Shown in pieces: positions 1-37,146 of a DNA stretch of 37,146 nucleotides. Below the pieces are notes generated by a model, which was not told the origin of the DNA, ran no database searches, and was given only the letters and a program-made list of their open reading frames with translations. This DNA is from a virus (lineage: Duplodnaviria; Heunggongvirae; Uroviricota; Caudoviricetes), in the IMG/VR virus record IMGVR_UViG_2684622543_000013; one strand, written 5' to 3'. Made by a program: the position numbers and the translations under genes. Each line of letters starts with the position of its first letter. Position 1 is the stretch's first letter.

Positions 1-841
1 GTGGATAGCGCACGCGCCCTTATTGCCCGGGGATGGGGAGTAAGCTTAGTCAGCCGTTGTCTCCGGGTGTCGCGTGCGCAGTTGCACGTCATTCTCAGAC
101 GAACCGATGACTGGATGGATGGCCGCCGCAGTCGTCACACTGATGATACGGATGTGCTTCTCCGTATACACCATGTTATCGGAGAGCTGCCCACGTATGG
201 TTATCGTCGGGTATGGGCGCTGCTTCGCAGACAGGCAGAACTTGATGGTATGCCTGCGATCAATGCCAAACGTGTTTACCGGATCATGCGCCAGAATGCG
301 CTGTTGCTTGAGCGAAAACCTGCTGTACCGCCATCGAAACGGGCACATACAGGCAGAGTGGCCGTGAAAGAAAGCAATCAGCGATGGTGCTCTGACGGGT
401 TCGAGTTCTGCTGTGATAACGGAGAGAGACTGCGTGTCACGTTCGCGCTGGACTGCTGTGATCGTGAGGCACTGCACTGGGCGGTGACTACCGGCGGCTT
501 CAACAGTGAAACAGTACAGGACGTCATGCTGGGAGCGGTGGAACGCCGCTTCGGCAACGATCTTCCGTCGTCTCCAGTGGAGTGGCTGACGGATAATGGT
601 TCATGCTACCGGGCTAATGAAACACGCCAGTTCGCCCGGATGTTGGGACTTGAACCGAAGAACACGGCGGTGCGGAGTCCGGAGAGTAACGGAATAGCAG
701 AGAGCTTCGTGAAAACGATAAAGCGTGACTACATCAGTATCATGCCCAAACCAGACGGGTTAACGGCAGCAAAGAACCTTGCAGAGGCGTTCGAGCATTA
801 TAACGAATGGCATCCGCATAGTGCGCTGGGTTATCGCTCGC
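1..841 (+). mobile_element. IS2 (IS3 family) internal segment, cut at the window edge on the left and interrupted on the right by the 36-kb insertion; the remaining 3' tail of IS2 resumes at 36876
   Basis: Sequence and translation recognised as the IS2 orfB (insD) region; the native IS2 reading frame ...HSALGYRS continues as [12 protein letters not shown]... only at 36882 onward. Confidence 0.85.
836..841. repeat. Left copy of the 6-bp target-site duplication GCTCGC (IS2 target sequence)
   Basis: GCTCGC at 836-841 and again at 36876-36881; uninterrupted IS2 has one copy (TATCGCTCGCCACGG). Confidence 0.75.
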
Positions 842-890
842 TGATGCGCCGCGCGATAAATAAGCCCGTATCCGTGAGATAAATGGTACC
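842..890. repeat. Left terminal inverted repeat of the transposable phage, with two copies of a GAGATAAAT-like motif (853-861 and 876-884)
   Basis: Reverse complement of the right end (36827-36875) shares TGAT tip, GAGATAAATG at about 12 bp and GTGAGATAA(A/T)T at about 35 bp from the tip. Confidence 0.7.
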
Positions 891-934: not shown

Positions 935-1501
935 TCACTCCGGCCTTTGAACACCAGCCGGAAAGTACCGATAGAGTGTCGATAATCCCACACCGTAAAT
1001 AATGGCCAACTGATGGCGTGTATATCCTTTAACTAATAATCGTCCAATCTGCTCTCTCTCATGGGGCTTTAGTGCATTTGGCCTTCCACCTATACGTCCC
1101 TGTACTCTCGCAGCGGCCAGTCCGGCCAATGTCCGTTCCACTATCAACTCGCGCTCCATTTCTGCCAGTGCTGACATGACATGAAAGAAAAAACGGCCCA
1201 TAGCAGTGCTGGTATCGATACTGTCCGTCAGTGATCGGAAGTGTGCGCCCCGTTCGTGCAAATCAGATATCAGGGTTATGAGGTTTTTGACACTGCGCCC
1301 GAGTCTGTCCAGCTTCCACACAACAAGAGTATCGCCACTATTAATGCACTTTAAAGCACGTTTAAGGCCCGGACGGCTGGCCACTTTTCCGCTCATGCGG
1401 TCTTCAAAAATGCGGTCACAATTTGCGCTTGTGAGTGCATTACGCTGCAAATCACTGTTTTGGTCAATTGTTGATACGCGGATATAGCCGATAACAGCCA
1501 T
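935..1501 (-). CDS. Serine-recombinase DNA invertase (Gin/Pin/Cin/Hin family)
   Basis: Translation MAVIGYIRVSTIDQNSDLQRNAL...LVVWKLDRLGRS...MGRFFFHVMSALAEMERELIVERT...LSTLYRYFPA is the typical invertase pattern (catalytic Ser in IRVST, C-terminal HTH); adjacent to the invertible tail-fibre segment. Confidence 0.9.
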   Translation of the reverse strand: MAVIGYIRVSTIDQNSDLQRNALTSANCDRIFEDRMSGKVASRPGLKRALKCINSGDTLVVWKLDRLGRSVKNLITLISDLHERGAHFRSLTDSIDTSTAMGRFFFHVMSALAEMERELIVERTLAGLAAARVQGRIGGRPNALKPHEREQIGRLLVKGYTRHQLAIIYGVGLSTLYRYFPAGVQRPE

Positions 1502-2166
1502 TGGTTCCTCCTCATTTTTACTGTAATGAGTGGATTATTACGAATTTACACGGCTGTGGCTGCATCCCCGAAAACCTTGGTTTGAGAGAACTTTACCTTG
1601 CACTGACAGGCGGGACGCTGAAGGGGCCGTTAAATATCGAATATGTTGGAGGTCGGGGGTTAACTACAGGAGCAACAGCCGGAACATCAATTTATCATGA
1701 ACTGTATCTGCTTGGAAAACTGGTTGCCTGGTGGGGAGTTATAAACAGTAACGAATTAGTGCTTGAAAACAGAGTCGCTGGTAAAAAATTAATTATTGGC
1801 CCTGATGGTTTCAAAATTGACGGTAAAGACATTGCGACTACTGAGCAACTTTTCGGTGTTGGTCAGACCTACAGAAACCTGACGACCAGCCGTCAAAATA
1901 AAGTCTGGTACACCAACACCGACAGCAAACCCCGGATTGTTCATGTCGAAACGAACAGAACAGGTACTCAGTATCCTTTCAGTATTGATATTCAGGTCAT
2001 TCATAACGGAGTACAACATCGTGCGGATTATCGCTGGACAACTGCTGATGAGGTTATTTGTTTAACTGCTGTTATTCCGCCCGGCGCAAGATATAGCGTC
2101 AACGGAGGATGGGGACAGCCGACAGAATGGACTGTTATTAATTTCTGGCTGGAGTACTCGCTATGA
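1501..2166 (+). CDS. Alternative tail-fibre C-terminal variable domain (silent in this orientation; becomes fused to the constant part of the fibre gene after inversion); the true 5' limit is the crossover site near 1578, not 1501
   Basis: Open frame running across the crossover site with no upstream promoter or start context; followed by an assembly-protein gene; frame arithmetic predicts in-frame fusion after inversion. Confidence 0.6.
   Translation: MVPPHFYCNEWIITNLHGCGCIPENLGLRELYLALTGGTLKGPLNIEYVGGRGLTTGATAGTSIYHELYLLGKLVAWWGVINSNELVLENRVAGKKLIIGPDGFKIDGKDIATTEQLFGVGQTYRNLTTSRQNKVWYTNTDSKPRIVHVETNRTGTQYPFSIDIQVIHNGVQHRADYRWTTADEVICLTAVIPPGARYSVNGGWGQPTEWTVINFWLEYSL
1566..1590. repeat. 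gix/hix-like invertase crossover site (ccccgAAAACCTTGGTTTgagagaa), centre TT at 1577-1578
   Basis: 22 of 25 positions match the inverted partner site at 3790-3814; core AAACC-NN-GGTTT resembles Gin/Hin recombination sites. Confidence 0.7.
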
Positions 2167-2516
2167 AATATTACAAAACGAAAAATAATGAAGTTTATGC
2201 ACTTGAAGATAACGACTCTGCAAAAGAGTGGATAAAAGAAAAAGTGACTGAAATCACCAAAGAGGAAGCTGATAACATCACAAATCCGCGACCAACGAAA
2301 GAACAACTGATCGCAAAAGCGGAATACGATAAACAGGCACTGATTACAGAGGTTCAGGCTGAACCTCAGTTACTGCAAACAAAACTGGCACTTGGCCGTA
2401 TCAGTGATAATGAAAAGGCGCGGTTAAACGCCTGGCTGGATTATCTGGAAGAACTGGAGGCAGTGGACGTATCCACCGCCCCGGATATTATCTGGCCGGT
2501 GAAGCCGGTCGTGTAG
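2163..2516 (+). CDS. Alternative tail-fibre assembly protein (partner of the silent fibre variable domain)
   Basis: Small acidic protein directly downstream of the alternative fibre domain, convergent with the active assembly gene, as in Mu G and P1 C segments. Confidence 0.6.
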   Translation: MKYYKTKNNEVYALEDNDSAKEWIKEKVTEITKEEADNITNPRPTKEQLIAKAEYDKQALITEVQAEPQLLQTKLALGRISDNEKARLNAWLDYLEELEAVDVSTAPDIIWPVKPVV

Positions 2517-3117
2517 GCCATTCAGTACCGACACCGTCGGATGTGTCGGTATCAGTGACTTTCACACTGTAAATTTCCCATTCTGTCAGTTTTGCCCGGT
2601 CTGTTTCAGTCGCCATGTTGAGGCGTATTTTACGCTCCAGCATGGCAATTTCCTGCTCAGCTTCTGCCAACAGCGACTGTTTCTGACTTTCGGCAACAGC
2701 GACCTCATGCGCGTACTGTTCTGCTTTATCTGTCACCCACTTTTTCCTGTCCCACTTATCAAAAGGCGTTTGCGGCTCAAGCAATGTCAGATTATCCGGC
2801 AGCGCACCGACGTTGTTTATCAGGACTTTTTCTTTTGTGGTTTTGTCATAAGCGGTTTTACCGCGATGGTCTTCCACATGCAGCCAGCGTTTACCGTCCT
2901 CACTGCGGACAATGGCAAATCCCGGTGCGGGTAATTCCGGTTTATCCGGATAGGCATCAGCTTTCAGACTGAATCCCAGCGGTACCTCATCCATGCTTTT
3001 CCCGGTATATTCCCGTGTCAGCGGGTGGCAGCAATACACCTCAGCCCATCCCGGAACCGTAGCCAGCCCATTTTCATCAAATACCGCGTACTGAATTTCA
3101 GTGTTGTAATCTGCCAT
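2488..3117 (-). CDS. Tail-fibre assembly protein (currently expressed orientation)
   Basis: 209-aa ORF immediately downstream of the tail-fibre gene; typical position and size of Mu U / P2 G type chaperones. Confidence 0.7.
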   Translation of the reverse strand: MADYNTEIQYAVFDENGLATVPGWAEVYCCHPLTREYTGKSMDEVPLGFSLKADAYPDKPELPAPGFAIVRSEDGKRWLHVEDHRGKTAYDKTTKEKVLINNVGALPDNLTLLEPQTPFDKWDRKKWVTDKAEQYAHEVAVAESQKQSLLAEAEQEIAMLERKIRLNMATETDRAKLTEWEIYSVKVTDTDTSDGVGTEWPTRPASPAR

Positions 3118-4413
3118 TTAAATAACCCTCGTAATATAAATCACCGCTTTGTTTACCGGTCTGAATTCATTTGCTGTGCTTACCTGACGGGATGCGTCAA
3201 AGGAGTATGCGACAGAGTTCCCGCCTGCTCCGGCTGCGCGACCGCCGGAATTGACGGAGTGACGAAATACCCCTTCGGAAAAATCCCCGCCCTCAATTGT
3301 CGGATTACCAAAGCGGCCGGTCAGGTTCCGCATGGCATCACCCTGGACACTGCCCAGCGTTCGCCCGGAGTCATAACCTTTTCCGCTGTCCAGTGCCCGT
3401 TTAAACAGCCCCCGGTCGTCGGGAAGTTTCAGTCCGGGAAAGACTTTGGCAAGCTCCGAATAAACTGATGCACTGAATGAACGGCCGTCATTCGCTAAAA
3501 AGTTTTCAGGGATAGCGGCTGTTGACTGCCATTCTATGGTTGCTCCGATTGGGATCCCCACAATACGGTTTTGTTGTATCGCACCATTGCTGTTCAGATA
3601 TCTGACAGTCAGCACAGCATAAGGATCGACATAGAACTGACCGGTATCAGTTTCTCCGGCTGCCGATGCGACTGATATTCCTTTGACATAAGTTGTGTTC
3701 ACATCACCGGAGAACGCACCGGTAAATCCGCGTCCCGGTAATTTGTTGACTGTTCTGAAAGGCAGGTAGTTTCCCTTCGGCTGAAATTTTTCTCCCAAAC
3801 CAAGGTATTCGAGAAGAGCTGCGACAGATTTTCCTGACAAGGCAGTCAGCGTATTATCCAGCGGCTGCTTACCGGCCAGAGCATTCGTCATTGTGGTGGC
3901 AAAATTTGGATCGTTACCCAAAGCCGCCGCCAGTTCATTCAGTGTATCAAGCGCCTCGGGAGACGATGCAACCAGTGCAGCAAGTGCCGATTTCACAAAT
4001 GCCGTTGTGGCAATCTGCGTATTATTAACGGTCTGCGGGGCAGTCGGAGCGGTAGGTGTGCCGGTTAATGCGGGACTGGCCAGAGGTGCATAGTCAGCAA
4101 CAACCGTTTTGACGTGTGCAGTATTGGCCAGTTTGGTGCTGTTATCCGTTTTGACCACCGTCGGTGCCGCCGGATTTCCTGTAAACGTCGGGCTGGCTTT
4201 CGGCGCATACTGGGTATGCGGGTCAGCAGCCTTAATGTGTTCCGAAAGGTCTGAACTGCCTTTTTCAACCTGTTGTTTCAGGTATGAAGTACGGCTGGCC
4301 AGTTGTTTAGCCTGACGGTTAGAAATCCCGTCAGGCCCGCCCAGGACGGGGTCAGAGACCTCAATCTGGTAGATGCCGTCTTCCCACTGCGGGGTTTCGG
4401 GTAGGTTTGCCAT
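3118..4413 (-). CDS. Tail-fibre protein (constant N-terminal part about 3804-4413, variable C-terminal part 3118-3803 inside the invertible segment)
   Basis: Translation MANLPETPQWEDGIYQIEVSDPVLGGPDGISNRQAKQLASRTSYL... with repeated TAPTAP-type fibre motifs; crossover site lies inside the gene. Confidence 0.8.
   Translation of the reverse strand: MANLPETPQWEDGIYQIEVSDPVLGGPDGISNRQAKQLASRTSYLKQQVEKGSSDLSEHIKAADPHTQYAPKASPTFTGNPAAPTVVKTDNSTKLANTAHVKTVVADYAPLASPALTGTPTAPTAPQTVNNTQIATTAFVKSALAALVASSPEALDTLNELAAALGNDPNFATTMTNALAGKQPLDNTLTALSGKSVAALLEYLGLGEKFQPKGNYLPFRTVNKLPGRGFTGAFSGDVNTTYVKGISVASAAGETDTGQFYVDPYAVLTVRYLNSNGAIQQNRIVGIPIGATIEWQSTAAIPENFLANDGRSFSASVYSELAKVFPGLKLPDDRGLFKRALDSGKGYDSGRTLGSVQGDAMRNLTGRFGNPTIEGGDFSEGVFRHSVNSGGRAAGAGGNSVAYSFDASRQVSTANEFRPVNKAVIYITRVI
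3790..3814. repeat. gix/hix-like invertase crossover site (inverted partner of 1566-1590), centre AA at 3802-3803
   Basis: ttctcCcaaaccaaggtAttcgAga versus reverse complement of the left site ttctcTcaaaccaaggtTttcgGgg. Confidence 0.7.
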
Positions 4414-28166: not shown

Positions 28167-28583
28167 TTAACCCACATTTTTTAGCCGCTCAATTGTTGCG
28201 GATAATTCTTTAAGTTGTTTTTCCATTTCAATTACACGCTGTTTTTCTTCAGCGCCTCGCATGAGATCTCGGCGAACCTCTGGGTCTAGCTGATTTAGGA
28301 GTTCAAGCATTTTAAGATCAGCTGGACTGAAGTTTTGCGTTGCAGGTTCAATCGTCAATACCTCGCTCCTATCCTCGCCTTTACCTGTAAGTAACCAGTC
28401 AAGAGAAATACCCTTTTCCTCTGCAATGTTTATGCAAATTGAATAAGGCACAGAGTCTCGCTTTCTCCAGCTAGCTAAAGTCTGTCTATTAACATTCAGC
28501 ATACGAGCCAGCTCACTGTCGTTATCAACATTAAACAGTGACATTAGTCGCAGAAGCACTGCATTAATGTCCTTTTTATTCAT
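28167..28583 (-). CDS. Prophage repressor (CI-like HTH DNA-binding protein)
   Basis: 138-aa ORF; N-terminal HTH ...LARMLNVNRQTLASWRKRDSVPYSICINIAEEKGISLDWLLTGKG; transcribed divergently from the ner-like gene. Confidence 0.8.
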   Translation of the reverse strand: MNKKDINAVLLRLMSLFNVDNDSELARMLNVNRQTLASWRKRDSVPYSICINIAEEKGISLDWLLTGKGEDRSEVLTIEPATQNFSPADLKMLELLNQLDPEVRRDLMRGAEEKQRVIEMEKQLKELSATIERLKNVG

Positions 28584-30120: not shown

Positions 30121-31890
30121 ATGAGTGCTGCCCTGACTGAACGACTGGTTTCTGTTGCCCGCGCGGCACGTGACGCGGGGCATGGTAAACGTGGTGCAAT
30201 ATACGACGCCGCCTGCACAGAACTGGGTATATCCCGTGCCACACTGCTGCGCAAGCTGAAGGAGGTATCAGTGACTGACAAACGCAAAAAACGCGCTGAT
30301 GCAGGACGCAGCTCACTGAGCCGCGATGAAGCTGCGCTGATATCCGCCACACTGCGCGAAGCTACCCGTAAAAATGGCAAGCGCCTGTATTCCATCGCGG
30401 ATGCGGTGGAAACTCTGAGGTCAAACGGCTTTATAACTGCAGGCAGAACGGACGAGGCCACAGGCGAGTTTTTCCCGCTGTCCGATGACACCATCAGCCG
30501 CGCACTGCGTAACTATGGCCTGCACCCGGAACAGCTTGATGCACCGGCCCCATCTTCCGAGGTGGCAAGTCTGCACCCTAATCACGTCTGGGAGATTGAT
30601 GCGTCGCTTTGTACGCTTTACTACCTGAGTAACGGTCACAAGGGGCTGCAGGTGATGGACAGCGCGAAGTTCTACAAGAATAAGCCTGCCAACCTTGCAC
30701 ACATCGCCAGTGACCGGGTATGGAGCTATGAGATAACCGATCATACCAGCGGCTGGATTTATGTTGAGTACGTGATGGGTGCGGAATCCGGTGAAAACCT
30801 CTGTTCTGTGCTTATCAATGCGATGCAGGAACGCGGCGGTGCAGATGTGCTGCACGGCGTACCTAAAATACTCTACCTTGACCCCGGTTCGGCGAACACC
30901 GCCGGCATGACGAAAAACATGTGCCGCTCGCTGGGTATCGATCTGATAGCGCACAAGCCGCATAACGCCCGCGCTACCGGTCAGGTTGAAAAAGCCCGTG
31001 ACATTATCGAACGCAAGCTGGAACCGGGTCTGAAGTTCCGTCCGGTTAACAGCCTGGAAGAGCTGAACTCACTGGCTGTGAAATGGCGCAGTCACTTTAA
31101 TGCCACAGCAATCCACAGCCGTCACGGTAAAACCCGCACCGATATCTGGCTGAAAATCACGGCTGAACAGTTGCAGAAAGCGCCATCTGCAGAGGTCTGC
31201 CGTGAACTGGCGGTGGCGGCACCGGAACTCCGCAAAGTCACACCAAAACTGCGTGTATCGTTCCGTGGCACAGAGTTTGATGTGTCGGCGGTACCGGGCG
31301 TTCTGGTCGGCGAAAAACTGATGATTACCCGTAACCCATGGCGCAGCGATGTGGCACAGGTGGTACTGACCGGCGGGGACGGTCACGAGACATTCTTTCT
31401 GGTCGAAGAGGTCAGAAAGAACGAGTTTGGCTTTGCCGAAAGCGCGGCGGTGTTTGGCAAAAGCTATAAACCCCTGCCGGAGACTACGGCACAGACTGCT
31501 GCAAAAGAAATTGAAGAGCTGGTCACCGGTACGGATAACGCTGCTGATGCAGCGGCAGCCCGTAAGGCAAAAACGCTGCCGTTCGGCGGACGACTGGATC
31601 CATACAAACATATCGACGACACCACGCTTCCCGCCTATATGCCTAAACGCGGTCAGGTTTCAGATGTGCGCGGCCCGCGTATTGAGCTACGCCCGCTGAC
31701 CCATGTGGAGGCTGCGAAAATTCTGCGTGAAAAGTTCAGCCTGAACGGCCATACCTGGACGCCGGAACATTATCGCCGGTTAACGGCGGATTACCCGGAT
31801 GGTGTGCCGGAAGCCACACTGGATGAAGTGATGGTCGCCCTGACCACCCCGGCCCGCAACAGCGTTATCAGCATTGTTAACGGCAACTGA
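30121..31890 (+). CDS. DDE transposase (Mu/Tn552/retroviral-integrase superfamily)
   Basis: 589-aa ORF; candidate catalytic triad D (HVWEIDAS), D (ILYLDPGSA) and E (ATGQVEKA) with about 35-residue D-E spacing; followed by an AAA+ ATPase gene. Confidence 0.85.
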   Translation: MSAALTERLVSVARAARDAGHGKRGAIYDAACTELGISRATLLRKLKEVSVTDKRKKRADAGRSSLSRDEAALISATLREATRKNGKRLYSIADAVETLRSNGFITAGRTDEATGEFFPLSDDTISRALRNYGLHPEQLDAPAPSSEVASLHPNHVWEIDASLCTLYYLSNGHKGLQVMDSAKFYKNKPANLAHIASDRVWSYEITDHTSGWIYVEYVMGAESGENLCSVLINAMQERGGADVLHGVPKILYLDPGSANTAGMTKNMCRSLGIDLIAHKPHNARATGQVEKARDIIERKLEPGLKFRPVNSLEELNSLAVKWRSHFNATAIHSRHGKTRTDIWLKITAEQLQKAPSAEVCRELAVAAPELRKVTPKLRVSFRGTEFDVSAVPGVLVGEKLMITRNPWRSDVAQVVLTGGDGHETFFLVEEVRKNEFGFAESAAVFGKSYKPLPETTAQTAAKEIEELVTGTDNAADAAAARKAKTLPFGGRLDPYKHIDDTTLPAYMPKRGQVSDVRGPRIELRPLTHVEAAKILREKFSLNGHTWTPEHYRRLTADYPDGVPEATLDEVMVALTTPARNSVISIVNGN

Positions 31891-33058
31891 GGAGGAACAC
31901 ATGCTGGTATTGAAACAACAACTTAAAGAAGCCCGTATCCCGCAGGCGGTGGTGGCAAGAGCAGTTGCCGTCTCCGAGGCAACGCTTGCCCAGATTGTGA
32001 ACCATAATGAGTGGCCCCGCACCAGTCCGGAAGATGTGCGCCAGCGTTTGGCGTCTTATCTGGAAAGTAAGGGGATTGATACAAAAAAGAGTTTTGATGT
32101 CGCACAGGGCGCTGCTGCGCCCGGCACAGCGGGTACAACCAACCTCCGTGAGGAAGAGAACATGTTACTTAAAAAACAGGTGTTATTTCCGGGAACCAAA
32201 AAAGCCTTTGGCCTTTTCCGTGACCCGTTCGCCGATGAAGCCATGCAGGGAGCGGACGATGTGTTTACCACACCGGATATCCGTTACGTGCGGGAGGCGC
32301 TGTACCAGACTGCCCGCCACGGTGGCTTTATGGCAGTTATCGGTGAGTCCGGTGCGGGTAAATCCACGCTGCGCCGCGATCTGACTGAACGCATCAACCG
32401 CGAGAACGCACCGGTGATTATTATCGAGCCATACATCATCGCCATGGAAGACAACGACGTGAAGGGCAAAACCCTGAAGGCGGCAGCTATCGCCGAAGCC
32501 ATCATCAGCACTATCGCGCCGCTGGAAAACATCAAACGCAGCCAGGATGCCCGTTTCCGCCAGTTACACCGAGTCCTGAAGGACAGCAGCCAGGCTGGCT
32601 TCAGCCACGTTCTGGTGATTGAAGAGGCCCACAGTCTGCCTATCCCGACACTGAAGCACCTCAAACGTTTTTTTGAGCTGGAGTCCGGCTTCAAAAAACT
32701 GCTGTCCATCGTACTGATTGGCCAGCCTGAACTGGCCACCAAACTGTCCGAACGCAATATGGAAGTCCGTGAAGTCGTGCAGCGCTGCGAAGTGGTTGAA
32801 CTGCTGCCGCTGGACAACAGCCTTGAAGAGTTTCTGGCGTTCAAACTGCAACGTGCCGGTAAGCAGCTGGCTGACGTCATGGACGCAGGTGCAGTTGAGG
32901 CCATCCGTGCCCGCCTGAGCAATCCGGGCAGCAACCGTAAAAGCATGGTCAGCCTGCTGTATCCGCTGGCTGTCAGTAACCTGGTGATAGCTGCCATGAA
33001 TCTGGCCGCTGAAATCGGGGTTCCGCAGGTCAACGCCGACGTTGTTAAAGGAGTTTAA
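31874..33058 (+). CDS. Transposition target-capture ATPase (AAA+, MuB/TniB-like)
   Basis: Walker A GESGAGKST, Walker B-like HVLVIEEAH; N-terminal HTH; overlaps the transposase gene end. Confidence 0.8.
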   Translation: MLTATEEEHMLVLKQQLKEARIPQAVVARAVAVSEATLAQIVNHNEWPRTSPEDVRQRLASYLESKGIDTKKSFDVAQGAAAPGTAGTTNLREEENMLLKKQVLFPGTKKAFGLFRDPFADEAMQGADDVFTTPDIRYVREALYQTARHGGFMAVIGESGAGKSTLRRDLTERINRENAPVIIIEPYIIAMEDNDVKGKTLKAAAIAEAIISTIAPLENIKRSQDARFRQLHRVLKDSSQAGFSHVLVIEEAHSLPIPTLKHLKRFFELESGFKKLLSIVLIGQPELATKLSERNMEVREVVQRCEVVELLPLDNSLEEFLAFKLQRAGKQLADVMDAGAVEAIRARLSNPGSNRKSMVSLLYPLAVSNLVIAAMNLAAEIGVPQVNADVVKGV

Positions 33059-35698: not shown

Positions 35699-35910
35699 TG
35701 GCTGAATCTGTTGTATTTTACCTGTTCTGGTATGGTCTCGCGGGATGGTGCACTGCTGAGTTGCACCGCCATTCAGGGTTTTACTCACGTTGCAGCAGCT
35801 ACGGACGCTGGTTCTGTTGGGCCGTTACATTCATGTGCTGGCCTGCTGCTCTTCCTTTATATGTCGATTATATTGGCGACGCAGGAAAAAGGAACGGAGA
35901 TGATGAATAA
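35695..35910 (+). CDS. Small hydrophobic protein
   Basis: 71-aa ORF with two hydrophobic stretches; start overlaps the preceding stop. Confidence 0.4.
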   Translation: MMAESVVFYLFWYGLAGWCTAELHRHSGFYSRCSSYGRWFCWAVTFMCWPAALPLYVDYIGDAGKRNGDDE

Positions 35911-36328
35911 ACAGCGCCTTATTCAACTCATTCACATAGCCCGCAGTGACCTCCGGATGGATGAGGATACCTACCGGCAGATGCTGCAGGGCCTGACCGG
36001 TAAGGCCTCAACCAAAGGAATGGATGCCATACAGCTAAACCGCGTTCTGGAATCCATGAAAAAGAAAGGCTTTCGTATTAAGCCTGCCGGGAAAGGTAAG
36101 TCCGGTTTACCGCTGGATAACCATCCGCAGTCAAAGAAAATCCGGGCGCTGTGGCTTGAGATGTCTGCGGCTGGCATCGTGCGCGACAGTTCAGAGCAGG
36201 CGCTGGCGCTGTGGGTCAAACGGGAAACGGGTATCAGCGCGTTACGCTGGCTCAGCAGTGAGCAGGCTGGCAGCGTGATTGAGAAGCTGAAAAAGTGGCA
36301 GCGCAGAGCTGCGGGGAGGAAGCAATGA
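35900..36328 (+). CDS. GemA-like protein (Mu gp16 family, DUF1018); start taken at ATG 35900
   Basis: Translation MMNKQRLIQLIHIARSDLRMDEDTYRQMLQGLTGKAS...RALWLEMSAAGIVRDSSEQALALWVKRETGISALRWLSSEQAGSVIEKLKKW. Confidence 0.7.
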   Translation: MMNKQRLIQLIHIARSDLRMDEDTYRQMLQGLTGKASTKGMDAIQLNRVLESMKKKGFRIKPAGKGKSGLPLDNHPQSKKIRALWLEMSAAGIVRDSSEQALALWVKRETGISALRWLSSEQAGSVIEKLKKWQRRAAGRKQ

Positions 36329-36714
36329 GCGACCTGAATCAGTTTCGCAGTAAAGGGCCGGAACTGTTGGTGGAGCTGGCACAACATACCTCTGAGACCG
36401 TCCAGGAAATTATTGATATTGAACTGGGAATTGCCGACCAGATTGGTCAGGCCGTCGCAAACCGCATGATGCAGGTCTGGGGCGGGCAAAACGTCTATTT
36501 TCCGATGGGTATGGTATGGCGGGTCAGCCAGCGTGACAGAGAAATATTTAACGAATTCGACGGGCGTAACCATCACGAGCTGGCCCGTAAATTTGGTGTT
36601 TCGCTACAGTGGATTTACAGTGTGGTGAAGCGGGTCAGAAAAGAAGAATTGGATCGGATGCAGGGCAAACTGTTTGATGGTGAATCCGATGCAGACACGG
36701 GGAAAAAGGAGTAG
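36325..36714 (+). CDS. mor: Mor/C-family transcriptional activator; start taken at ATG 36325 with GGGGAGGA ribosome-binding site
   Basis: Translation ...GGQNVYFPMG...RDREIFNEFDGRNHHELARKFGVSLQWIYSVVKRVRKEE matches the Mor/C family (C-terminal HTH). Confidence 0.8.
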   Translation: MSDLNQFRSKGPELLVELAQHTSETVQEIIDIELGIADQIGQAVANRMMQVWGGQNVYFPMGMVWRVSQRDREIFNEFDGRNHHELARKFGVSLQWIYSVVKRVRKEELDRMQGKLFDGESDADTGKKE

Positions 36715-36826: not shown

Positions 36827-36875
36827 TCCCATAATTATCTCACTTATCCCCTGTCATTTATCTCAAGTCTAATCA
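36827..36875. repeat. Right terminal inverted repeat of the transposable phage (motif copies AATTATCTC 36833-36841 and ATTTATCTC 36856-36864)
   Basis: Reverse complement TGATTAGACTTGAGATAAATGACAGGGGATAAGTGAGATAATTATGG aligns with the left end 842-890. Confidence 0.7.
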
Positions 36876-36881
36876 GCTCGC
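36876..36881. repeat. Right copy of the 6-bp target-site duplication GCTCGC
   Basis: Identical to 836-841; both copies are IS2 sequence. Confidence 0.75.
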
Positions 36882-36957
36882 CACGGGAATATCTGCGGCA
36901 GCGGGCTTGTAATGGGTTAAGTGATAACAGATGTCTGGAAATATAGGGGCAAATCCA
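36876..36957 (+). mobile_element. 3' terminal segment of IS2 including its right inverted repeat (ends ...GGGGCAAATCCA at 36957)
   Basis: Sequence GCTCGCCACGGGAATATCTGCGGCAGCGGGCTTGTAATGGGTTAAGTGATAACAGATGTCTGGAAATATAGGGGCAAATCCA recognised as the IS2 right end; continues the reading frame broken at 841. Confidence 0.85.
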
Positions 36958-37146
36958 CTTACGCTTATCTTCTCTTATTTTGAAATACAGATTCGTCAGA
37001 TAAGTCAGAAGCCCCAGAAGCAGACTTCCCAGCACACCAATCGCAGCCCACTGTGATGGACTGACCTGATCCAACCACTGCAAAAACCAGTAGCCGGCAC
37101 TGCCGGCGGAGGTGCCGTAGGCAATGCCTGTTGATATTTTTTCCAT
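36958..37146 (-). pseudogene. S21-type pinholin gene of a different (lambdoid-type) prophage; the last few codons are displaced by the IS2 insertion, giving a reading frame that runs into the IS2 inverted repeat
   Basis: Translation [63 protein letters not shown] matches the phage 21 pinholin family; the ORF continues through IS2 sequence to 36844. Confidence 0.75.

Follow-up and report, generated by a model that had tools for sequence, protein, structure and literature searches.

The stretch of DNA analyzed here (the window, 37,146 nucleotides in full) belongs to a draft Shigella sonnei contig (CWTC01000010.1, assembly GCA_001256215.1) on which a lambdoid holin gene fragment, an IS2 element, and a 36-kb transposable phage are nested within one another. 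Reading from the left, positions 1–841 correspond to nt 415–1255 of IS2 on the plus strand and contain most of orfB. They are followed by a BcepMu-like transposable prophage of 36,034 bp (842–36875), then by the right end of IS2, i.e., its last 82 bp including IRR (nt 1250–1331; 36876–36957, plus strand). The remainder of the window (36958–37146, minus strand) encodes codons 1–63, counted from the MEKI start, of a phage-21-type class II holin that keeps both transmembrane segments.

The minus-strand ORF matches the Pfam family PF04971 (“Bacteriophage P21 holin S”) with an E-value of 2e-34 and a score of 117.8 bits (cut-off 26), the match spanning residues 2–63 and 62 of the 64 profile positions. 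In E. coli FDAARGOS_944, an IS2-free copy of these 189 bp is 100% identical; its protein is 71 aa long, starts MYQMEKI, and ends AARGE*. In that genome, the holin is followed by rrrD (lysozyme) and a Rz-type lysis protein, within a lambdoid late region that includes terminase, Q-like genes, and tRNAs. Without IS2, the holin allele shares 94.1% identity with the Escherichia phage 21 holin (H66). The window frame instead reads KIREDKRK and then WICPYISRH: exactly five codons (AARGE) are displaced, with IS2 entering after K63 (K66 of the long form). The native charged C-terminus is thus replaced by 37 foreign residues, leaving a disrupted member of the class II holins. The original prediction, made from the sequence of the window, described an S21-type pinholin that is read on into the inverted repeat of IS2, that has its last codons replaced, and that abuts an IS2 right end at 36957. 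The Pfam match and the junction sequence agree with the first of these statements, the FDAARGOS_944 allele confirms the second, and the coordinates of the third hold to the base.

The resulting chimeric ORF (36844–37146, minus strand) is 100 aa long, is annotated in GenBank as “lysis protein S” (CSE59444.1), and combines holin, IS2, and phage end. Its frame crosses IS2 and runs 32 bases into the phage, giving 63 holin residues, 27 IS2 codons, one codon (L) that straddles the junction, and nine phage-end codons (IRLEINDRG*). The holin tail had been described beforehand as IS2-derived; this is correct for the 27 IS2 codons, but the end of the tail is phage-derived and has therefore been rewritten by the phage as well. 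With IS2 alone, the product is 91 aa long and ends ...YSRGER*, as in the S. sonnei protein P0001. An exact look-up of the 100-aa chimera retrieved one contig only, namely CWTC01000010.1 of S. sonnei.

We also observed an upstream alternative start, MYQ-M, located 9 nt beyond the window (L003 92–103 / L001 4190–4198). The corresponding upstream start of phage 21 is MKSM, and a lysine in the extra N-terminal residues marks the antiholin form of S21. If phage 21 indeed reads MKSM, the MYQM start of the window holin would lack the antiholin lysine. S. sonnei proteins named “lysis protein S” additionally include length variants of 111, 94, 88, 84, 79, 73, and 67 aa, some of which have frameshifted tails (P0029, P0057). 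These variants indicate continuing decay, differing start calls, or assembly noise.

Multiple lines of comparison identify the interrupting element as IS2. Positions 1–841 of the window are 100% identical to features annotated as “IS3-like element IS2 family transposase” in thousands of E. coli RefSeq records, and the encoded protein contains rve, rve_3, and HTH_21 domains. The plus strand at 36876–36957 reads GCTCGCCACGGGAATATCTGCGGCAGCGGGCTTGTAATGGGTTAAGTGATAACAGATGTCTGGAAATATAGGGGCAAATCCA and ends ...GGGGCAAATCCA / ...GGAAATATAGGGGCAAATCCA. The orfB GTG is the first codon of the window; the 414 nt of IS2 that precede it, with IRL, fall immediately beyond the left edge. We rebuilt the element by joining the 414 bases to the left of the window (source contig, L006), window positions 1–841, and window positions 36882–36957. 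The rebuilt IS2 is 1331 bp long and aligns with 0 mismatches to the holin-locus copy in an S. sonnei chromosome. Its termini, TAGACTGGCCCCC... and ...GGGGCAAATCCA, match those of IS2, and it contains orfA and orfB with HTH and DDE (rve) domains. These matches to holin and IS2 are exact or near-exact and are not due to chance.

The window copy agrees with the IS2 of E. coli and Shigella in its length of 1331 bp, its 100% identity, and its HTH and rve domains; in sister genomes, a 5-bp duplication accompanies IS2 at the holin site. The window copy differs from them in being split at nt 1255 by the 36-kb insert, in encoding a C-terminally truncated OrfB, and, as assembled, in being flanked by two separate loci. 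Native OrfB is 301 aa long in the sister genomes, whereas orfB of the window continues into the phage as a chimeric ORF of 293 aa (1–882, plus strand), in which 280 native residues are followed by 13 read from the phage left end. A search for this IS2-OrfB/phage chimera found no record of it as a called protein. Because its OrfB is without the last 21 native residues, this IS2 copy is probably reliant on transposase supplied by other copies, and the phage-split element is probably crippled.

To define the ends of the phage, we used the points of divergence in approximately 20 other insertions, which were retrieved with the invertase and Mor proteins. Flank alignment places the ends of all phage copies at identical bases, 5'-TGATGCGCCGCGCG...CAAGTCTAATCA-3'. 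The termini are of the form 5'-TGAT...ATCA-3', and the terminal inverted repeats are imperfect, with GAGATAA(A/T)T motifs at matching spacing. On either side of the phage lies a 6-bp target duplication, GCTCGC, which corresponds to IS2 nt 1250–1255 (left copy, 836–841; right copy, 36876–36881). Duplications of 6 bp were likewise present in the three other genomes in which both ends are available (GCGAAG, AAATGT, and CCGCAG), i.e., in four of four cases including the window. The same termini recur in the approximately 20 loci with unlike flanks, as is the signature of transposition. The phage entered IS2 at nt 1255 through ordinary transposition.

The phage carries its late genes on the minus strand and its early genes on the plus strand. 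Near the left end, a Gin-type serine invertase (935–1501, minus strand; Resolvase and HTH_7, E = 4e-46) is adjacent to an invertible tail-fibre/assembly segment of 2243 bp (1569–3811) bordered by 22-bp inverted crossover sites. This segment is flipped, at 99.9% identity, in two other copies (L012, L013); the copies in L008 and L010 have other tail-fibre cassettes at the same position. Further features include P2-type tail genes, a phage repressor with a CI-type HTH (28167–28583, minus strand; PF07022, E = 8e-19), and a DDE transposase of 589 aa (30121–31890, plus strand), named “transposase” in the PhiKM annotation, whose rve match (E = 1.5e-7) is marginal at 32.0 bits compared to a cut-off of 32.6. 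These are followed by an AAA+ transposition ATPase analogous to MuB (31874–33058, plus strand; AAA_22, E = 4e-20), a GemA-like protein (35711–36328, plus strand; PF06252, E = 2e-39; a mechanical ORF, the called gene being shorter), and a Mor-family late-transcription activator that is the last gene before the right end (36325–36714, plus strand; PF08765, E = 4.5e-43). Going by its invertible segment and intact ends, the prophage may be active.

The closest relatives of the early region are Phi06_2974 B, Klebsiella phage KP12, and Escherichia phage PhiKM, to which it is approximately 86% identical at the nucleotide level. The PhiKM match has 85.6% nucleotide identity over 36% of a 10.9-kb query, and the taxonomy line of PhiKM reads Bcepmuvirus. 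The window phage shares with these Bcepmuvirus-type phages its size of approximately 36 kb, an rve transposase, an AAA+ ATPase, GemA, Mor, P2-type tail genes, and insertion at many unrelated sites. In contrast to them, it has a Gin-type invertase and a 2.2-kb invertible segment at its left end, only 36–79% of its early region aligns (at approximately 86%), and its host, S. sonnei, is not among the hosts listed for the nearest phage records. There are also parallels with phage Mu, i.e., transposition with short duplications at near-random sites, Mor and GemA, and a Gin-like invertase with an invertible tail-fibre segment. Unlike Mu, which generates a target duplication of 5 bp, the window phage makes one of 6 bp; its early and late regions are divergent, with the early genes heading out toward the right end, and its transposase fits the generic rve core only.

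The same phage was also observed at well over a dozen unrelated chromosomal sites (L004–L023), with L021 and L023 sharing one site. In two of these insertions it is nested within other prophages, specifically in lambdoid tail genes (L005/L017) and in Mu-like baseplate and sheath genes (L007/L018).

We surveyed the 91-aa IS2-tailed holin (P0001), which occurs in 234 contig blocks, 18 of them longer than 1 Mb. The 24 longest contigs were read, yielding 18 long S. sonnei assemblies (ten listed loci and eight collapsed as similar to them), and a phage-free holin::IS2 allele was present in all 18. In each of the ten listed loci, the gene order is truncated holin (91 aa), IS2, lysozyme (165 aa), Rz (156 aa), DedA-like protein, terminase, and portal. 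In the five assemblies checked by sequence (L024–L028), IS2 lies between two direct copies of a 5-bp sequence that reads GTAAG on the holin strand, and the displaced GCTGCGAGAGGTGAATAA (AARGE*) lies beyond IS2, where it overlaps the start of the lysozyme gene. One copy of this target duplication is found in the window as CTTAC (36958–36962), and its partner is not beside IRL in the source contig. On these sequences, holin::IS2 is an old simple insertion that is common to all long S. sonnei assemblies examined.

The host locus had been interpreted as the lysis cassette of a lambdoid prophage. This interpretation is borne out in the sister genomes, in which endolysin, Rz, terminase, and portal genes accompany the holin, but not in the source contig, where the holin fragment stands isolated. 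The endolysin of the S. sonnei sister genomes has a Gly/Ala-rich N-terminus; this segment is predicted to be of the SAR type, as expected beside a pinholin. Resemblance to the S21 pinholin/R21 cassette of phage 21 extends to the fit of the 63 residues to PF04971, the 94% identity of the intact allele to the phage 21 holin, and, in the sister genomes, the succession of holin, lysozyme with a Gly/Ala-rich N-terminus, and Rz. The window gene differs from that cassette in having 37 unrelated residues in place of AARGE and in being separated from its promoter and partner genes by IS elements.

A further mobile element borders the other side of the holin fragment. The source contig ends 100 bp past the window, 81 bp inside an IS110-family element (L003 1–81). 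By comparing S. sonnei assemblies with and without the insert, we defined this element as a 1449-bp sequence (L035 2033–3481) without target duplication, located 19 bp before the MEKI ATG, or 10 bp before the MYQM ATG. The source and most long S. sonnei assemblies share this insertion; L039 and L041 lack it. The native prophage DNA between the IS110-family element and IS2 is therefore limited to an island of 208 bp containing the holin fragment.

It had also been proposed that the insertions may have damaged the lysis timing of the resident prophage. The findings do not support this proposal: the prophage is decayed, with many IS elements that include further IS3-family copies, and with a split portal gene, and the holin is cut off from its upstream region. 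Lysis timing is a moot point for a gene that is a decayed remnant. Given that the fragment has neither its native upstream region nor an adjacent endolysin, it is probably inert.

We also considered whether the 100-aa chimera is a functional and selected product, for instance a retuned pinholin or a membrane toxin expressed via read-out from neighbouring elements. In favor of a function, the chimera keeps both transmembrane segments and its start codons, it is annotated as a CDS, and IS2-tailed holins recur in other alleles, with insertion at the same codon in P0003 and one codon earlier in P0004. We nevertheless regard a function of this kind as highly improbable. An IS element sits 19 bp upstream of the ATG in place of the native upstream region, and the endolysin is not adjacent in the source. 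The tail itself is simply read from the antisense strand of IS2 and from the phage end, and every insertion alters it (91 compared to 100 aa). Moreover, elsewhere in lysis cassettes IS2 lies in the middle of the holin gene or in the endolysin gene, a pattern that fits inactivation. An inert remnant hence remains our preferred interpretation of the fragment.

IS2 insertions in other cassettes were observed in three E. coli genomes (L002, L044, L045), where the element is located mid-holin or in the endolysin gene of DLP12/Qin-type cassettes. The collected cases suggest that lysis cassettes are recurrently struck by IS2, possibly with a preferred target near the 3' end of the holin gene. The cases do not support one exact hot spot for IS2 within holin genes, as those in E. 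coli lie mid-holin or in the endolysin; in P0003 and P0004, however, the same codon or a neighbouring one was struck in other holin alleles.

Considered together, the right end of the window very probably reflects successive insertions into the S. sonnei chromosome. The starting point would be a lambdoid prophage with a phage-21-type lysis cassette, comprising a class II holin, a SAR endolysin, and Rz. IS2 (IS3 family, 1331 bp) would then have transposed into the holin gene after codon 63 (66 in the long form), duplicating 5 bp (GTAAG) and exchanging the final residues AARGE for a 28-residue tail encoded by IS2. In a separate event, shared by most S. sonnei strains and by the source, the 1449-bp IS110-family element would have entered 19 bp ahead of the holin ATG. 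Finally, in the source isolate only, the 36,034-bp BcepMu-like phage would have integrated at IS2 nt 1255 via DDE transposition with duplication of 6 bp (GCTCGC). This last step would have deprived IS2 OrfB of 21 residues, moved IRR 36 kb away from IRL, and altered the tail of the holin chimera, which had ended ...YSRGER*, to one that finishes with the phage-end residues IRLEINDRG*.

The order prophage, IS2, phage follows from three findings: the long S. sonnei assemblies examined all have holin::IS2 without the phage, the form with the phage is recorded on one contig only, and excising the phage with one copy of its duplication gives a perfect IS2. The junctions, both duplications, and the distribution across the population are direct observations. 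A search of complete E. coli genomes for the phage/IS2/holin junction did not recover it, and neither did an exact-pattern scan of species-representative genomes. The original prediction had inferred three ordered mobilization events; the order is upheld by the phage-free allele, the duplications, and the one-contig fusion, but the count falls short, as there were at least four events. On the right side, the connection of the phage end to the holin, via 82 bp of IS2, is as assembled in a short-read draft. Both phage/IS2 junctions and this 82-bp connection should be short enough for reads or read pairs to cover.

The left flank of IS2 does not match the right. In the source contig, IRL adjoins not the endolysin gene but tssM of a T6SS cluster (L006 11916–20567), whose neighbouring genes encode TssA, VasI, ClpV, DotU, and TssK. 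The junction reads ...CCTTATGTGG|TAGACTGG, and also ...GGGCCTTATGTGG|TAGACTGGCCCCC, with the IRL flank being ...TTATGTGG. Up to the IS2 end, at approximately codon 513 of 1144, this flank matches intact E. coli tssM at 100% identity. The 5 bp immediately outside the two IS2 ends differ (TGTGG compared to CTTAC), and no copy of CTTAC is found at IRL. The IS2 as assembled is hence a hybrid of two loci and not a simple insertion into the holin gene. Since any later exchange between IS2 copies would have used the left arm (1255 bp) rather than the right arm of 76–82 bp, the holin side is likely to be the original address of the phage-bearing IS2. The mismatched tssM flank is likely to be secondary.

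Two explanations can account for this flank. The one we favor, with somewhat better than even confidence, is that assembly or scaffolding joined two loci through the 1255-bp IS2 repeat, in which case the true locus would read endolysin, IS2 with its phage, and truncated holin. The source is a short-read draft, the other side of the contig breaks 81 bp into the IS110-family repeat, and the canonical flank is present in all long assemblies. An S. sonnei chromosome has 229–348 IS copies, and IS2 is one of five that have expanded (PMC7373316); the left arm of a multicopy element of this kind is unplaceable by short inserts. Five runs of N of approximately 250 bp occur in the adjacent T6SS stretch (L006); they were rejected as proof of scaffolding, as they may be masking by the data provider instead of scaffold gaps. 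A further point against a join is that assemblers usually halt at such repeats.

The other explanation, to which we assign rather less than an even chance, is that the nest is real as deposited and that this IS2, either before the phage entered it or afterwards, recombined with an IS2 copy in tssM, causing an inversion or translocation that left endolysin and Rz elsewhere. This would be a possible fifth mobile-element event. The deposited contig does read tssM fragment, IRL, IS2, phage, IS2 end, and holin fragment, with differing 5-bp flanks; the tssM flank is identical to intact E. coli tssM, and the 1255-bp left arm is amply long for homologous exchange. In S. sonnei, inversions flanked by IS elements occur frequently (PMC12795559), and an IS in tssM has been reported for lineage 3 S. 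sonnei, with the IS type and site unnamed (PMC10924462). Against these points, tssM lies beside holin::IS2 in none of the 18 long S. sonnei assemblies, no second record of the tssM–IRL junction was found, and a strain-specific event on precisely the phage-bearing copy has a low prior. Exact scans for this junction in metagenome and genome contigs gave 0 matches, and the IS-site supplements of PMC7373316 do not list a tssM insertion in searchable form. A protein search for a TssM fragment with an IS2-encoded tail returned no tailed protein, a weak result given that the same search also missed full-length TssM. Two candidates from the TssM C-terminal search (P0177, P0253) were discarded as IS junctions, being Rhs-adjacent truncations in other strains.

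An assembler join through the IS2 repeat therefore remains favored over IS2-by-IS2 exchange, and the nest itself is unchanged by either reading. We think it improbable that the tssM flank is real in the full sense that an inversion or translocation between IS2 copies split the lysis cassette and set an IS2-bracketed 36-kb prophage beside the T6SS cluster. If the flank were real, the resulting 37.4-kb IS2-ended unit could in principle move with IS2 transposase provided in trans. This contig, with its unmatched IS2 flanks, reflects either a strain-specific rearrangement or a misjoin, of which users of GCA_001256215.1 should be aware.

Every layer of the nest is of a known kind, i.e., IS2, a disrupted phage-21-type cassette, and a BcepMu-like phage, and the case is an ordinary one. 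Nested insertions are routine in Shigella prophages. The findings bear on annotation, in that the 91- and 100-aa CDSs named “lysis protein S” in S. sonnei are insertion chimeras. They also establish, to the base, where a BcepMu-like prophage that circulates in E. coli and Shigella ends, and that it duplicates 6 bp. More broadly, the locus illustrates, at base resolution, the layering of IS expansion and transposable phages on decaying prophages of S. sonnei, with a relative timeline in which holin::IS2 is common to the long assemblies examined and the phage insertion is specific to the isolate.
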